From a virus (lineage: Duplodnaviria > Heunggongvirae > Uroviricota > Caudoviricetes): DNA of 13,107 nucleotides. This document shows positions 204 through 13,107 of this stretch, piece after piece. The position numbers and the translations under genes are program-made. Position 1 is the stretch's first letter. The number at the start of each line of letters is the position of its first letter. The notes under the pieces are model-generated. The model had not been told where the DNA came from, made no database searches, and was given only the letters and a program-made list of their open reading frames with translations. The stretch lies in IMG/VR virus record IMGVR_UViG_2648501150_000039, one strand, 5' to 3'.

Positions 204-1133
204 CTACTTATTTCCCTGTCCAATCTTACCCGCAACTGCCTCGGTAAGCTTTACTAAGGTTTCAAGTTCATTTTTGTCTAATTTTCTTGCTTCAATAATT
301 TCAGTAGTCTGCCCTGATTCTAGTTTTCCAACTCTTGAGCTAAAATTAATTTTATCCAGAAGGTCTATCATATCGATATCTTTCTGGCTAGCCATTACAA
401 GCTTTATAATGGCATAGCTTTCCTCACGTGAACGTTTTATTGCCTCGTAATAGCGAAACTCATCCATCGTAACCCGATATTGCTTCAAAAAGAAAAATGC
501 GATTAACTCCAAGAAAATCAACACGCCAAAATTAGGGAGAAGATACATTACCTTGGTTACCGCATCATCCTTAGCATCAATTACATGTGATTGAGAATAG
601 AAGAAACCTAATCCAACTATTGCAAAACAAACACCGACTAATAAATAAAGACTACCGCGAGAATATATGTTTTTCGCAAGACCTTCAGAGCTATTAATCA
701 AACCTTTAAGATAAAAATCCAGAGATTCATCTTCATCAGCAGCAGCCCTTTCCTCTTGAGCCTTCTTGAGTAGTTTTATCTCATTTATAATATCGACAAT
801 ATTAAACATCGATGATTTGTCGACTGAATCACTCCCTGTAATTCTCATAAACATTCTTTGGATTGGAGACACACCATAGATAATGGTGTAAACGATTACA
901 AATGACACTGCGAATATTGACCTGATAAAGCTCGGCAAATGTGTAAGATCTGCTCTCGCACTGGGAAATAAATAATAAAAGGTTGAGTCTAATATCCCTG
1001 TAGCAAAAATTACATTTGCAACTAGAAAGACTGCACCTATCTCAACTAAATTATAAAAACCACGAGTGCGTACCCTAATGACTTTGGCCTCGGTCATTCT
1101 TGGAGGTGTTTCGATGGTTGGCTCACTCATCAT
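204..1133 (-). CDS. Hypothetical membrane protein, four predicted transmembrane helices in two hairpins separated by a charged coiled-coil-like linker; function unknown
   Basis: 309-aa uninterrupted ORF. Hydrophobic stretches LVEIGAVFLVANVIFATGIL, IFAVSFVIVYTIIYGV, LYLLVGVCFAIVGLGFFY and VLIFLELIAFFFL. AGGA lies upstream of an ATGATG start. The gene is visibly AT-rich compared with the tail genes. I recognise no family. Confidence 0.6.
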   Translation of the reverse strand: MMSEPTIETPPRMTEAKVIRVRTRGFYNLVEIGAVFLVANVIFATGILDSTFYYLFPSARADLTHLPSFIRSIFAVSFVIVYTIIYGVSPIQRMFMRITGSDSVDKSSMFNIVDIINEIKLLKKAQEERAAADEDESLDFYLKGLINSSEGLAKNIYSRGSLYLLVGVCFAIVGLGFFYSQSHVIDAKDDAVTKVMYLLPNFGVLIFLELIAFFFLKQYRVTMDEFRYYEAIKRSREESYAIIKLVMASQKDIDMIDLLDKINFSSRVGKLESGQTTEIIEARKLDKNELETLVKLTEAVAGKIGQGNK

Positions 1134-2977: not shown

Positions 2978-3553
2978 TTAATACCCTACTGCAATATAAA
3001 AAACTGATTCACCAGCGTCCTGAGAACCTACCCCCGGAACGCCAGACCAGGTTTTGTTAATGAATGCAAAACTGGTATTACTCAGATCAGATGCTCTGTA
3101 CATCGGGCTGAACATCCAGTAGTTGGCTCCATATGTTTGTCCGAAAACAATGCCATAGCACTGATTTGTAAATGGCGTAGAAAATAATTTTCCACCAGTA
3201 CCAGCGATAGTCCCGAATCGCATCTGGAACCCATTCGGGAAATTAATTCCGCCTGCCGGTGAAGACCAGTAAGACATATCAGGTATTTGCCCAGCACTAT
3301 TTCCCACGTTTTTTGTTGCAACGGTTCCTAACCCAAGATTAGCTCTTGCGTCAGATTTATTTGTTAACTCATAAAGATTATTTGCCTTTTGAAGTGCTCC
3401 TATTATGCGTAAATCATCACCAGCGGCAACGGTTCCGACTGTCGTGCCCACATCCCTTTTCGCCGCTTCTCCTAAACCAACGTTTTCGTTTTTATCCCTA
3501 CCTATACCAACTCTGTATTTTTCACGAAACAAAGAGGATGTTTTTTTATGCAA
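2978..3553 (-). CDS. Alternative tail fibre C-terminal variable segment (Sv'-like)
   Basis: Open frame on the minus strand running through the right crossover site, where it encodes NENVGLGE (the same GLGE junction as the left site). It is glycine-rich and fibre-like, and lies immediately upstream of tfa' on the same strand. The tracked start is an artefact; there is no constant N-terminal region. Confidence 0.7.
   Translation of the reverse strand: MHKKTSSLFREKYRVGIGRDKNENVGLGEAAKRDVGTTVGTVAAGDDLRIIGALQKANNLYELTNKSDARANLGLGTVATKNVGNSAGQIPDMSYWSSPAGGINFPNGFQMRFGTIAGTGGKLFSTPFTNQCYGIVFGQTYGANYWMFSPMYRASDLSNTSFAFINKTWSGVPGVGSQDAGESVFYIAVGY
3467..3492. repeat. Right crossover site of invertible segment (gix/hix-like)
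   Basis: TTCTCCTAAACC-AA-CGTTTTCGTTTT; 3466..3482 is the inverted-repeat partner of 1458..1474. It lies 55 bp upstream of the invertase start codon. Confidence 0.7.
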
Positions 3554-4147
3554 ATTGGCTATATTCGTGTGTCAACAAATGACCAGAACACGGATTTACA
3601 ACGCAATGCACTGAACTGCGCAGGATGTGAACTGATTTTTGAAGATAAAATCAGCGGAACGAAATCAGCCAGACCGGGATTGAAAAAACTGCTCAGAACG
3701 CTATCAGAAGGAGATACGCTGGTTGTCTGGAAGCTGGACAGACTGGGCAGAAGTATGAAACACCTGATCACGCTTATTGAGGAATTGCGGGAAAAAGGTG
3801 TTAATTTCCGTAGTCTGACGGACAGCATTGACACATCAACACCCATGGGGCGTTTCTTTTTTCACGTCATGGGGGCTTTAGCCGAAATGGAACGTGAATT
3901 AATTGTAGAGCGTACACTGGCCGGGCTGGCAGCAGCACGCGCACAAGGACGCATTGGCGGACGTCGCCCGAAGTTGACAAAAGAACAACACGAGCAAATA
4001 GCGAGGCTGATTAAAAACGGTCATGACAGGAAACAACTGGCGATCATTTACGACATCGGCATATCGACGATTTATCGTTATCACCCTGTAGGCGATATAC
4101 AGGCTGAAGAAACAACCAGGCAGACTCAGGAAAATAAAAACCGCTAA
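3548..4147 (+). CDS. Site-specific DNA invertase, serine recombinase (Hin/Gin/Pin/Cin family)
   Basis: The N-terminus MQIGYIRVSTNDQNTDLQRNAL contains the catalytic serine motif of resolvase/invertases. A C-terminal helix-turn-helix region follows (GRRPKLTKEQHEQIARLIKNGHDRKQLAIIYDIGISTIYRY). AGAGGA lies upstream of the ATG. The gene is adjacent to the invertible fibre segment. Confidence 0.95.
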   Translation: MQIGYIRVSTNDQNTDLQRNALNCAGCELIFEDKISGTKSARPGLKKLLRTLSEGDTLVVWKLDRLGRSMKHLITLIEELREKGVNFRSLTDSIDTSTPMGRFFFHVMGALAEMERELIVERTLAGLAAARAQGRIGGRRPKLTKEQHEQIARLIKNGHDRKQLAIIYDIGISTIYRYHPVGDIQAEETTRQTQENKNR

Positions 4148-9755: not shown

Positions 9756-9912
9756 AGCTTTAGCCCCTTGTATCCGTTAAATGATTCGGCAACAATCATC
9801 ACCCACCACGCGCGTAATCTCACCCCTGTGCCGTTCTCCCGATCCGGCGACAACAAAAAGCAGTAACCCCCTCCGCACGCACATGCGACCATGCCGCACA
9901 GGGAGGGAACAG

Positions 9913-11022
9913 ATGACCGATACCACCATGCAATTGCTCAGTCAGGGCACAGACCCCGTGAAAATGCCGGATTTTGATATTCTCGCGGAGGGTAAAACGC
10001 TGTCAGGCGTGGCAGAGCGCCTGATGAGCCTGTCACTGACCGACAACCGGGGATTTGACGCGGACCAGCTCACCATCACGCTGGATGATGCGGATGGTCA
10101 GTTGCAGCTACCGCCACGGGGCGCGCGCCTGACGGTTCTCATTGGCTGGAAAGGAGAACCGCTGACAGAAAAAGGCACTTACATTGTTGATGAAATCGCT
10201 CACGAAGGACCGCCGGACAGGCTGACTGTTTCAGCCAGAAGCGCAGATTTTCGGGATGAATTTAACGTTAAACGTGAGGTGTCCTGGCATGATGTGACCG
10301 TTGAGCGTGTGGTATCCGCCATCGCTCATCGGTATGGTCTGAAACCGCAAATCAGCGAAATGCTGATGGATATCGAAATCGACCACGCCGACCAGACCGA
10401 AGAAAGCGATATGTCCTTCCTTACGCGCATGGCGGAAATGCTGGGCGCAATCACCACGGTAAAAAGCGGCAATCTGTTATTCATCATGCCAGGTGGTGGC
10501 GTGAACGCACAGGGCCAGCCGTTGCCATCGTTCGCCATCACACGCAGCAGCGGCGATCGCCATCAGTTCCGCATTGCTGACCGCGAGGCGTATACGGGGG
10601 TACGCGCTTACTGGCTTGATCTTAATTACGGGAAAAAGAAAAAAGTCAGCGTGAAACGCCGCAAACCGCCAAAACCCAAAAAGGAGAAAAGCAGCAGCCG
10701 TGAAGGTGATTATATGGAAGGCGCGGAAGGCAATGTGTTTGTGTTACGCAAGACTTATCAGAACGAGCAGGCAGCAAGACGCGCAGCGGCGGCAAAGTGG
10801 CAGCAGCTACAACGCGGAGCCGCATCATTTTCCATCACGCTGGCGCGTGGACGTGCAGAACTCTACCCCGAAATGCATGGCACGGTAACAGGATTTAAAA
10901 GCGAGATTGATAATCAGGACTGGATTATTGCAAAAGCCGAGCACACCATTGATAACAGCGGCTTTACCACGCAGCTTGAGCTTGAGGCAAAAATCCCGGA
11001 ATGGATAGCAGAAACAGCGTGA
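9913..11022 (+). CDS. Phage late control gene D family tail protein (P2 gpD-like)
   Basis: Long ORF; the likely start is the ATG at 9913, preceded by GGGAGGGAA (the tracked ORF starts upstream at 9781). Size is about 370 aa. The call rests on overall resemblance to P2 gpD as recalled and on its position next to the other P2 tail genes and ogr. Confidence 0.8.
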   Translation: MTDTTMQLLSQGTDPVKMPDFDILAEGKTLSGVAERLMSLSLTDNRGFDADQLTITLDDADGQLQLPPRGARLTVLIGWKGEPLTEKGTYIVDEIAHEGPPDRLTVSARSADFRDEFNVKREVSWHDVTVERVVSAIAHRYGLKPQISEMLMDIEIDHADQTEESDMSFLTRMAEMLGAITTVKSGNLLFIMPGGGVNAQGQPLPSFAITRSSGDRHQFRIADREAYTGVRAYWLDLNYGKKKKVSVKRRKPPKPKKEKSSSREGDYMEGAEGNVFVLRKTYQNEQAARRAAAAKWQQLQRGAASFSITLARGRAELYPEMHGTVTGFKSEIDNQDWIIAKAEHTIDNSGFTTQLELEAKIPEWIAETA

Positions 11023-11113: not shown

Positions 11114-12283
11114 CTAATATTGAGAAAGATAATCAGCGACTCCATCTGCAGGGTTTCGCCCACCAGTATAAATTGTGCCTAATTCTTGAGGTGTAACATA
11201 TGTTGTAGGCCAAATGGCCATATTTTTAAAATAGTTATCTATTTTTATTCTTTGAAGTTCTTTAAAGAGATAATCTTCTAAGTCATTTCTTTTTAGACAG
11301 TTAACATAATAAGCAGCCGCACTTGCTACTATATCTACAATTTGTAATTGAGGATACTCTTGTGATGAATGGAATGTCAAAGAACGAGCTTTAATTGGCA
11401 ATTCAAATTTTCTTCGATCATAACCATATGCCTCCGTAATTTTTGATATATCCATAAATTTATCAAAAATATCTTTCTTCTCTGTAATAGCTTTGGAATC
11501 GTCATGCTTAATATAAAAACCATTAGGGTATAATTTACCCCATTCTACACAGTGTCTAAAGAGGCTTGGTATAGATGGATCTAATGTGCTTTTCTCAACA
11601 CCTTCCAATATATCATCAATATCGCTTCTGGTAATACTAATTCTGTTTATTATATCTGTGAATATCTTATCACTTGAGCATATCTTTAACTCATCAATTA
11701 CCCTGTAAAATTCATCAATTGACTCAGTCGATTGGCTTCTGATCATATTCATAAAACACTGATACATTACCTCTGTTTTTTCCTCCCCACAGAAAGCAGG
11801 GAAACAGAAATAGTAAACATTAGACAGAGCTAGATTCTGTCCATTTATATAAAGATCTATTCCTCTATTAGAGCACCACGTCTCGATCAAAATATCAACA
11901 ATCTTTGCTGTTAGCATGTATTTTTTATCGACCAAGTATATTTTAACATTCTCTTCATTGACATATTTGCTTTCAAGAAGCCTAATGATGCCATCCTGAC
12001 CAGATTTTCTACGTCTAAGAGTTTTAAAGTGGGCTTCTGTTGGAGACTTGCTTCCGGTTAGTTCTAATGCCTTAAGCGCATCCTGTTTACTAATACTACT
12101 TGAACTTAAGGTAAAAACAGGTTGCAATGGATCGAGTAAATTTCCGCCAGTATTACCTGATTCATCAAAAAATATATCAGGCTTTATATACAACATTTTA
12201 TTTATCTTTGCCGCTAAGTTTCTTTTTTTCTCATTTTCTCGCTTAATTTTATTATCTCGCCTACGTTGACTATTCTTTCCCAT
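11114..12283 (-). CDS. Hypothetical protein, AT-rich cargo gene; possible DUF3800-like family (motif-level recall only)
   Basis: 389-aa uninterrupted ORF antisense to both gpD and ogr. K/R-rich N-terminus, then DIFFDESGNTGG; near the C-terminus QLQIVDIVASAAAYY. These resemble the DESG and Q-x-x-(A/V)-D signatures I associate with DUF3800. Codon usage is strongly AT-biased, unlike the flanking phage genes. Confidence 0.65.
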   Translation of the reverse strand: MGKNSQRRRDNKIKRENEKKRNLAAKINKMLYIKPDIFFDESGNTGGNLLDPLQPVFTLSSSSISKQDALKALELTGSKSPTEAHFKTLRRRKSGQDGIIRLLESKYVNEENVKIYLVDKKYMLTAKIVDILIETWCSNRGIDLYINGQNLALSNVYYFCFPAFCGEEKTEVMYQCFMNMIRSQSTESIDEFYRVIDELKICSSDKIFTDIINRISITRSDIDDILEGVEKSTLDPSIPSLFRHCVEWGKLYPNGFYIKHDDSKAITEKKDIFDKFMDISKITEAYGYDRRKFELPIKARSLTFHSSQEYPQLQIVDIVASAAAYYVNCLKRNDLEDYLFKELQRIKIDNYFKNMAIWPTTYVTPQELGTIYTGGRNPADGVADYLSQY

Positions 12284-12515: not shown

Positions 12516-12776
12516 ATGTTCCGTTGTCCGCTTTGTGGCGCATCTGCCCGTATCCGCACAAGTCGTCCGGAAAATGATTCAAACACCGTGCGGCAAAAGT
12601 ATTACCAGTGTAACAACCTGGAATGCGGCGTATGCTTCTCAACACTGGAAGCCTTCCATAAATTCACATCAAAACACGCCTCCGCCGTTCACTCTTCAGA
12701 AGGTATCCCGTGGCATGAGCTGCCAGCTTCACACAGGGGAAACAATCAGATGAGTTTGCCTTTACCTCAGAACTAA
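12516..12776 (+). CDS. ogr: Ogr/Delta-family zinc-finger late transcription activator
   Basis: The N-terminus MFRCPLCGASARIRTSR ... YYQCNNLEC gives a C-x2-C ... C-x4-C zinc-finger spacing close to P2 Ogr (MFHCPLC ... CQNVNC). Strong SD AAGGGAGG lies upstream. It sits downstream of gpD, as in P2. Confidence 0.85.
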   Translation: MFRCPLCGASARIRTSRPENDSNTVRQKYYQCNNLECGVCFSTLEAFHKFTSKHASAVHSSEGIPWHELPASHRGNNQMSLPLPQN

Positions 12777-12785
12777 CAGGCAGAA

Positions 12786-12814
12786 TTGCCGGATTAACAA
12801 AAAAGCGATAGATT
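12786..12814 (+). promoter_or_regulatory. Putative sigma70 promoter for the hok-family mRNA
   Basis: TTGCCG (12786..12791), a 17-nt spacer, then TAGATT (12809..12814). The predicted transcript would start about 145 nt upstream of the toxin ATG, giving the long structured leader typical of hok mRNAs. Confidence 0.3.
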
Positions 12815-12836
12815 ACGCGCGGGTGCCTTTCGGCTG

Positions 12837-13100
12837 ATGGTCGGAGGGAATACCCGAAGGCCAGATGTGGAAAGGCCCCGGAAAACATCTCTGTTTAACC
12901 GAGGCCCTAACCGCATTACCTTGACAAGTGAAAGGTTAGCGCCTCTCCGGAAAAGGAGCAAGTGCTATGTCGCAAAAATCGCTTACGGCCATCACGTTCT
13001 GCGTGACGGCAATCCTCATCATCTGGATGCTGCACGGTTCACTGTGCGAAATACGGATGAGCTTCTGGGGAGCGGAGTTTGCGGCGTTCTTACAGTGTAA
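12837..13100 (+). other. mok-like overlapping reading frame (possible translational-coupling ORF for the hok-family toxin)
   Basis: 87-codon ORF in a different frame that overlaps almost the whole toxin ORF and ends 7 nt before it. This is analogous to mok in hok/sok loci, but may be fortuitous. Confidence 0.3.
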
Positions 13101-13107
13101 GCAGTAA
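12967..13107 (+). CDS. Hok/Gef-family type I toxin (small membrane peptide)
   Basis: Manual translation gives the 46-aa peptide MSQKSLTAITFCVTAILIIWMLHGSLCEIRMSFWGAEFAAFLQCKQ. It has an N-terminal transmembrane helix, then SLCEIR and EFAAFLQCK, matching the Hok-family signature (compare Hok ...SLCEIR...EVAAFMAYE). AAGGAG lies 8 nt upstream. It was not in the ORF track because it is under 60 aa. The stop is the last codon in the window. Confidence 0.75.
   Translation: MSQKSLTAITFCVTAILIIWMLHGSLCEIRMSFWGAEFAAFLQCKQ

Follow-up and report, generated by a model that had tools for sequence, protein, structure and literature searches.

[quoted passage not shown] The locus is real but ordinary: it is annotated in RefSeq, its exact peptide is catalogued in a tested set of Hok homologs, and it is in this sense already known. 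Only one thread is mildly novel, namely that a canonical mok may be lacking and that the Sok target loop is hypervariable. The features considered in this work are listed below, with the last three given in the coordinates of locus L001, 3' of the hok stop and outside the window.

12516-12776, plus strand: ogr, late-gene activator, given as context outside the cassette (Pfam Ogr_Delta, 52.5 bits)
12786-12814, plus strand: candidate hok promoter (-35 TTGCCG at 12786-12791, 17-nt spacer, -10 TAGATT at 12809-12814)
12821-12835, plus strand: predicted 5' end of the hok mRNA with the tac-like element GGGUGCCUUUCGGCU (start of the Rfam model; aligns with the hokW and R1 5' ends)
12837-13100, plus strand: mok-like overlapping ORF of 87 aa beginning with ATG; frame open here, start doubtful
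12866-12926, minus strand: predicted Sok RNA, about 60 nt long, with a single-stranded 5' tail (about 12-20 nt), a GC-rich hairpin and UUUCC
12869-12879, plus strand: ucb-like box GGAAAGGCCCC; in the folds it masks the GAGG box while the RNA is closed and is paired with the 5' end once the RNA is open
12901-12905, plus strand: GAGGC box, aligned with the mok Shine-Dalgarno of R1 and hokW
12912-12926, plus strand: hypervariable target of the Sok 5' tail, apical loop in the truncated mRNA, with the YUNR motif UUGA
12933-12961, minus strand: candidate Sok promoter (-35 TTGCTC, complement of 12956-12961; 17-nt spacer; -10 TAACCT, complement of 12933-12938)
12953-12958, plus strand: hok Shine-Dalgarno AAGGAG; 8 nt separate it from the ATG, and in the folds the hairpin UAGCGCCUCUCC/GGAGCAAGUGCUA sequesters it
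12967-13107, plus strand: hok, Hok cluster 72, 46 aa, above the Pfam threshold (RefSeq WP_000078916.1)
L001 14717-14740: GC stem-loop
L001 14758-14773: fold-back element GGUCGAUAAGGCACUC, complementary to the 5' end GGGUGCCUUUCGGCU
L001 14793-14820: intrinsic terminator, followed by TCTTTTT

The hok gene, its prior record and its prophage setting

In line with the first-pass annotation of this DNA, which had reported a 46-codon ORF with a Hok signature after ogr, such an ORF was present at 12967-13107. Its product, MSQKSLTAITFCVTAILIIWMLHGSLCEIRMSFWGAEFAAFLQCKQ, scored 29.9 bits against the Pfam profile PF01848 (HOK_GEF; gathering score 22, E 4.1e-7), with peptide residues 7-44 aligned to profile positions 5-42 of 42. 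The same annotation had held that a peptide lacking the conserved Hok cysteines and core positions would speak against the assignment; in the alignment, both cysteines (C12 and C27) and the remaining core residues (M1, T14, L26, E28 and E37) were all in place. For comparison, the residues conserved in more than 80% of Hok proteins are M1, C16, T18, L30, C31, E32 and E41 in R1 numbering, according to a recent survey (bioRxiv 10.1101/2025.08.07.668861).

With regard to its position within the family, the peptide did not reach the cut-offs of the NCBIfam HokA equivalog NF007290 (34 versus 89 bits) or of the Hok subfamily NF007279 (21.6 versus 73 bits), and it is therefore not HokA but a member of a separate cluster inside the Hok family. 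HokA of K-12, the best NCBIfam match albeit far under its cut-off, was closer to it than R1 Hok in a direct comparison that took in named Hok proteins only, with 43% identity and a shared MxQK start, W-M, SLCE and AAFLxCK. R1 Hok differs in its length (52 aa versus 46), in sequence (39% identity over 31 residues) and at its C-terminus, where Tyr-Glu-Ser-Gly-Lys stands in place of the Cys-Lys-Gln found here. The K-12 hokA locus was unsuitable for comparing leaders and regulation, as IS150 cuts its leader. Substitution rates show purifying selection on the hok frame (median dN/dS of 0.29, calculated only from loci found by DNA similarity); the loci from viral contigs were left out of this sample as biased, since all 80 of them encode an identical protein.

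The description of the locus as unannotated did not hold, as the CDS has the RefSeq entry WP_000078916.1 ("Hok/Gef family protein") in identical public chromosomes, and phage records label the ORF "MokW-like host killing". What is unannotated in the cassette is its RNA features only. Furthermore, the 46-aa peptide is identical to entry 72_1621 in Table S2 of the Hok survey by Escalera-Maurer et al. (v2, 2026; bioRxiv 10.1101/2025.08.07.668861), where it represents the "high-abundance cluster" 72 and was cloned for a toxicity assay in which the CDS alone was overexpressed. In this assay, 42 of the 45 Hok homologs were toxic; the preprint names the three non-toxic ones, among which 72_1621 does not figure, and names no result for 72_1621 itself, so that this entry counts as toxic by exclusion. 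The killing test previously proposed for the peptide has in effect been published.

Beyond Table S2, the supplements of the survey yielded no further mention of the entry or of WP_000078916. [quoted passage not shown] Literature searches that combined hok with P2-like phages and ogr brought up no paper describing the ogr-attR location.

Over its last 708 bases, the window was 100% identical to the chromosome of E. coli O104:H4 and to other chromosomes. In O104:H4, the corresponding element is a full-length P2/186-like prophage of approximately 36 kb located between btuC and ihfA, which carries integrase, repressor, replication, head, lysis and tail genes and has a 16-bp repeat, AAAGAAAAAAGGCCGC, at both ends; in the window, the gpD ORF is intact (9781-11022). 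Its earlier designation as a remnant was consequently abandoned, on the grounds of the complete gene set, the intact gpD and the end repeats. By contrast, the placement of the cassette at the ogr-distal edge of a P2-like prophage was borne out, with the cassette ending around 140 nt inside attR. On the other side, 10 nt separate the ogr stop from the hok -35, and a scan of the ogr-hok gap found no terminator-like site. A DUF3800 gene, which constitutes a second cargo gene, adjoins ogr, and its protein retrieved nothing from PADLOC or NCBIfam.

As had been remarked, the window ends on the toxin stop, with the last base of the hok ORF being the last base of the window. It therefore comes without the last 120 nt or so of a hok mRNA whose whole length is predicted to be about 405 nt. 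More generally, trimming of predicted prophages at gene boundaries cuts the cassette at the hok stop, whereby the fold-back and the terminator, both needed for regulation, are lost.

The genome deposited for phage P88 and those of its Xuanwuvirus relatives contain the ogr-hok module too. At a coverage of at least 80%, the cassette was detected in 1702 of 5426 complete E. coli genomes (~31%). P2-like prophages with the cassette occupy three integration sites (ihfA, serS and raiA), while lambdoid or Stx phages carry it after lom or after gpJ, and it also occurs in a genomic island without a phage lysis context. An alignment-based search of genome contigs yielded 8 loci and a scan of viral contigs 80 loci, all of the latter with identical protein; the 94 loci considered comprised 35 distinct leaders. 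Conservation extended from the hok -35 to a few bases past the fold-back, with the terminators and flanks beyond these limits varying with the context, which defines the cassette as a mobile unit. Taken with the z-score of -8.0 for the mRNA fold described in the following section, its presence in 1702 genomes places the locus far beyond chance.

RNA elements of the cassette

Comparison of 10 diverse loci showed that the TTGC of the hok -35 and the T-A-n-A-n-T of its -10 are invariant or nearly so. The hexamers match the sigma-70 consensus at 8 of 12 positions for hok and at 6 of 12 for sok, and a consensus promoter scan of the region listed neither promoter; the calls accordingly derive from conservation and positional homology. 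The end of the hok -10 lies 6 nt before the predicted mRNA 5' end, where GGGUGCCUUUCGGCU was invariant across the loci compared, and hok transcription probably starts near 12821. The leader, estimated beforehand at approximately 145 nt, measured 146 nt and was aligned over its full length by the Rfam model of the hok leader in sense orientation (RF01794; 12821-12980, plus strand, model positions 1-157, 48.4 bits, E 1.6e-9). As this score did not reach the gathering threshold of 59, the leader is to be regarded as a divergent relative rather than as a curated member. Within it, the GGAAAGGCCCC box aligned with the GCCCC of R1 and hokW, and GAGGCC was present in 94 of the 94 loci.

The first-pass annotation had advised extending the sequence downstream in search of the fold-back and the terminator, and both were located 3' of the hok stop in the identical E. 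coli O104:H4 chromosome. Folding of the RNA, likewise proposed there, was performed on the full-length molecule (L001:14422-14828), which closed 5' on 3' with a dG of -175.9 kcal/mol and a z-score of -8.0 relative to shuffles. In this minimum free energy fold, a 15-bp 5'-3' closure (tac/fbi) was formed, and the unpaired probability of the hok Shine-Dalgarno was ~0 in the full-length fold. When the RNA was truncated at its 3' end, residues 1-11 were instead predicted to pair with GGAAAGGCCCC, an in silico switch from tac/fbi to tac/ucb, with GAGGC pairing with GCCUC and the variable region forming the apical loop.

A consensus structure computed with RNAalifold from 34 distinct mRNAs recovered the 5'-3' closure (columns 1-7 with 361-367), the GGCC/GGCC masking of the GAGG box (columns 55-58 with 86-89), the hok RBS hairpin (columns 124-132 with 141-153) and the 3' stem-loop, the last with compensatory changes at four pairs, in 2, 3, 6 and 5 sequences. 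Double changes with pairing kept were seen at 20 of the 100 consensus pairs, including the 3' stem-loop and one long-range helix. All changes in the tac/fbi pairs across the 34 mRNAs were G-C to G-U, with double compensation nowhere seen, so that this closure is supported by conservation and not by covariation.

On the opposite strand, the candidate antisense promoter put forward earlier, with hexamers TTGCTC and TAACCT and a 17-nt spacer, was recovered exactly at 12933-12961, and its hexamers, spacer and position proved to be homologous to those of R1 and hokW. The segments AGGTTAGCGCCTC and GCAAG did not vary among 10 diverse loci and hardly varied among the 34 distinct mRNAs. The sok hexamers are TTGCGC/TATCCT in R1 and TTGCCT/TAACCT in hokW, at equal position and with an equal 17-nt spacer, and the complement of the -10 reads AGGTTA both in the window and in hokW, and AGGATA in R1. 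A promoter-less hokW mutant lost antitoxin activity (PMC8621323), and the primers given for it reconstruct a replacement of TAGGTTAG, the -10 segment. The TAACCT found here is thus the homologue of an experimentally tested -10.

The predicted Sok RNA, of about 60 nt and with probable ends at ~12926 and ~12866, fits the antisense RNA of roughly 60-70 nt previously anticipated near 12860-12930, prediction agreeing here with prediction. Its fold had a z-score of -3.7. The hairpin folded in every allele examined, and the two different versions of it in relatives both folded perfectly, with a predicted geometry resembling that of the annotated sokB and sokC of K-12.

An alignment with R1-type hok/sok and hokW-sokW revealed six positionally homologous elements, i.e., the 5' end, the GCCCC box, the GAGGC box, the sok -10, the 17-nt spacer and the sok -35 TTGCnn. 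With R1 hok/Sok (parB), the cassette shares its gene order, the 5' tac, the ucb GCCCC, the GAGGC, the fold-back and the terminator (features according to PMC9841398), as well as a predicted sok promoter that has a 17-nt spacer and overlaps the hok RBS region, and a GC-rich 3' stem-loop. Relative to R1, the distance from the hok ATG to the sok -35 is shorter by 8 nt, and the carrier is a prophage instead of a plasmid. The hokW-sokW system of the Stx2 prophage Sp5 (VT2-Sakai), which is a type I toxin-antitoxin by experiment (PMC8621323), is prophage-borne as well, and has an identical sok -10 TAACCT at the homologous position, the same 17-nt spacer, a -35 TTGCnn and a very similar 5' end (GGGUGC...). 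In contrast, HokW is 51 aa long, belongs to another cluster and resides in a lambdoid phage, and MokW is an in-frame N-terminal extension whose ATG lies 7 nt after GAGGC.

Candidate mechanism and roles

On the basis of the predicted folds and of the parallels with R1 and hokW-sokW, the cassette may operate as follows. The weak promoter at 12786-12814 would give rise to an mRNA of ~405 nt starting at ~12821. As a full-length RNA, this would be silent, with its 5' end predicted to pair with the fold-back situated ~57-65 nt past the stop, the GGCCCC box masking the GAGG box and a local hairpin locking the hok RBS. Trimming of the 3' end down to the GC stem-loop would, in parallel to R1, switch the 5' end to GGAAAGGCCCC, and this switch would refold the GAGG region into a hairpin displaying the variable loop. 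By homology with R1 and hokW-sokW, a Sok RNA of ~60 nt transcribed from 12933-12961 would bind that loop with its 5' tail, and block and/or destroy the mRNA. Once the supply of Sok stops, for example by loss of the prophage or by a transcription shut-off, the stable mRNA would be translated and Hok would damage the inner membrane, a membrane action of the 46-aa peptide being what its family leads one to expect. The most likely candidate role is an addiction-type stabilisation of the prophage, with the cassette possibly doubling as an aid in lysis or exclusion.

A different main role would be that of a lysis helper. In hokW-sokW, deletion of the system halves the yield of Sp5, and HokW appears after mitomycin C (PMC8621323). 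By analogy, induction and read-through from ogr could here tip the balance between hok mRNA and Sok, with Hok aiding lysis and phage release, and the gap of 10 nt that follows the ogr stop, in which no terminator was found, would be compatible with such read-through. We nevertheless consider lysis help unlikely as the main role, given that hokW belongs to another cluster, encodes 51 aa with an in-frame MokW extension and comes from a lambdoid phage, and that the present cassette is also found in a genomic island devoid of phage lysis context. Phage exclusion as the main role seems quite improbable to us; the cassette would then act by abortive infection, whereby a lytic phage shuts off host transcription, the short-lived Sok is depleted and the cell is killed by Hok before the infecting phage has matured. 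R1 hok/sok reportedly excludes T4, and the location of the cassette in a cargo slot at the prophage end, with the DUF3800 cargo gene adjoining ogr, would suit a defence function. A phage-defence role of hok/sok is also cited in PMC8621323 and in the Hok survey (bioRxiv 10.1101/2025.08.07.668861). The survey finds, however, that hok is not enriched near defence systems, and PADLOC contained no model matching the 46-aa peptide.

Lastly, the locus could be an inactive relic, a decaying and functionless hok copy as the chromosomal hok loci of K-12 are thought to be. The K-12 hokA locus is cut by IS150, earlier reports described the chromosomal homologs as mostly inactive in K-12 (as cited in bioRxiv 10.1101/2025.08.07.668861), and the present cassette is missing the canonical mok start and has two promoters that are weak by consensus. 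This explanation is nonetheless very improbable, since the ORF is intact and under purifying selection by its dN/dS, the promoters, tac, ucb, GAGG box, 3' stem-loop and fbi are conserved whereas the flanking DNA is not, approximately 31% of complete E. coli genomes carry the cassette, and the peptide counts as toxic by the survey text. Prophage stabilisation by a functional hok/Sok cassette remains the preferred reading.

The mok frame and the variable Sok target loop

The mok-like frame at 12837-13100 noted in the first-pass annotation exists as an ORF and is open in the window; as a mok gene it was not conserved, and its ATG is an unlikely start. Three start codons are present in this frame in the window allele, namely ATG 12837, GTG 12867 and TTG 12921. 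ATG 12837 was rejected as a mok start, being inside the 5' tac stem, 16 nt from the RNA end and without a ribosome site, being replaced by ACG in two relatives (island loci), and belonging to a frame that is closed in many alleles. In around half of the distinct related alleles, an in-frame stop occurs 46 or 19 nt before hok, and no ATG, GTG or TTG was found in the mok frame between that stop and hok. Whereas the mok ATG of R1 and hokW lies 7-8 nt after GAGG, no ATG follows GAGGC at the mok position in the window allele; similarly, none of 22 alleles has an ATG, GTG or TTG 5-13 nt after GAGG, AUU or AUC being present in some of them.

Should the mok frame be used after all, the candidate starts would be TTG 12921 or AUU 12915, both under the Sok 5' end; with the sok -10 as the anchor, the mok ATG of R1 and hokW aligned 3 nt before TTG 12921. 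R1 makes Hok only if mok is translated as far as the start of hok (PMC9841398). By the R1 rules (PMC9841398), the frequent TGA in the mok frame inside hok would be harmless.

A relay without mok, in which truncation frees GAGGC, GAGGC captures GCCUC, the hok RBS is thereby exposed and Sok reverses the process, was modelled by partition function in three states for 14 alleles. It was rejected as the main explanation because the RBS stays paired: its unpaired probability was 0-0.02 in the full-length fold and, in 13 of the 14 alleles, mostly 0-0.13 and up to 0.36 in the truncated fold. The exception was a divergent Salmonella diarizonae locus (L017), in which the hok RBS was at 0.27 to 0.43. The lack of a conserved mok and the pairing of the hok RBS even in the truncated RNA count against the model at a key step, that of activation.

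With respect to the Sok target, regional identities were compared among 23 distinct mRNAs that all encode an identical Hok. Mean identity amounted to 98% in the hok CDS and 100% in GAGGCCCTAAC, and to 71% in the 15 nt opposite the Sok 5' tail (12912-12926). The YUNR tetranucleotide was kept in all 15 distinct versions of these 15 nt; YUNR is the U-turn motif of antisense target loops. The combination of a hypervariable loop and a retained YUNR suggests that Sok recognition may be allele-specific.

These observations can be combined in a tentative proposal, which we put forward as rather doubtful: Hok cluster 72 would be a mok-less hok/Sok in which GAGGC, formerly the ribosome-binding box of mok, serves as an RNA switch and Sok target and translation is triggered otherwise, and in which the variable loop around YUNR would give mutually orthogonal Sok RNAs, so that several copies could coexist in one genome. 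Being present in about one-third of complete E. coli genomes, this cluster is a convenient natural case both for asking whether mok is dispensable and for studying diversification of the Sok loop as a means of avoiding cross-talk. The trigger may be an AUU or TTG start under the Sok 5' end, or refolding alone. Another candidate trigger may be a 3-codon mini-ORF, GUG-NNN-GGU-UAG, which ends at the foot of the hok RBS hairpin.

The predicted Sok target and reading frames of the hok leader

The most variable parts of the hok cassette were the stretch opposite the 5' tail of the predicted Sok RNA (window 12912..12926) and the Sok hairpin loop (12880..12900), with identities among mRNAs encoding an identical Hok of 71% and 81%, respectively. 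These stretches were present as several discrete alleles, with a YUNR motif being kept in all of them. A match to Rfam RF01794 was also found at window 12821..12980 (+). This family, despite being named 'sok', models the hok leader in sense orientation, with a consensus that begins with GGGUGCUUGAG and ends in AUG; therefore, the match falls on the hok strand and provides no direct information on the antisense RNA.

Two reading frames that start upstream of a hok gene were noted:

Window 12928..12939, hok frame: mini-ORF GUG-AAA-GGU-UAG
Phage VT2-Sakai (L104) 595..807: annotated 'gef homolog' (MokW), 70 codons

The hairpin sequestering the hok ribosome site begins with the stop codon of the mini-ORF, which supplies its first base pairs. 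The start of the mini-ORF is GUG in 18 of the 22 alleles and GUA in the others. This mini-ORF may act as a minimal coupling ORF. In the hokW-sokW locus of VT2-Sakai, MokW shares the reading frame of HokW and extends it at the N-terminus, starting from a mok ATG located 57 nt upstream. This contrasts with the hok/Sok system of plasmid R1, in which the mok frame differs from that of hok. The mok arrangement varies between Hok clusters.

The ogr-hok junction and contig boundaries

Only about 10 nt (window 12777..12785) separate the ogr stop codon from the hok -35 element, and no terminator-like site was found within this interval. The first terminator on the + strand was located past hok, at 14793-14820 of L001, the identical E. 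coli O104:H4 chromosomal locus which extends beyond the window. Transcripts of ogr probably read through into the hok leader.

Many IMG/VR viral contigs end exactly 3 nt past the hok stop codon (e.g., L026, L028 and L032; length 1341), and the end of the window, 13107, is the hok stop codon itself. Gene-boundary trimming in prophage prediction cuts off the hok 3' UTR, i.e., its stem-loop, fold-back element and terminator.

Near-identical copies of the window's E. coli-type Hok (98% identity) were also found in assemblies labelled as the Gram-positive taxa Planococcaceae, in this case a metagenome-assembled genome, and Vagococcus sp. (L014, L015), which probably reflects contamination or mis-binning.

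Additional cargo in the prophages

Two further genes of the window are considered here:

Window 3451..4023, minus strand: serine O-acetyltransferase gene (annotation taken from the identical RefSeq record)
Window 11114..12283, minus strand: DUF3800 protein gene, 389 aa (Pfam, 41.2 bits)

The DUF3800 gene is inserted into the gpD-ogr interval, in contrast to the three other P2-like loci with an annotated ogr (L002-L004), which lack it and in which the D stop and the ogr start are about 42 nt apart. Since its product gave no match in PADLOC or NCBIfam, the gene represents cargo of unknown function adjoining the hok cassette. The serine O-acetyltransferase gene, flanked by a tail-fibre assembly gene and the tail gene block and oriented opposite to the fibre genes, marks a second position at which the prophage carries cargo.

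In the P2-like prophage at raiA of strain N63, hok is followed by a com-like regulator and a DNA methyltransferase, and then by the chromosome flank (L004 2074..3022); therefore, different cargo accumulates in the ogr-attR interval.
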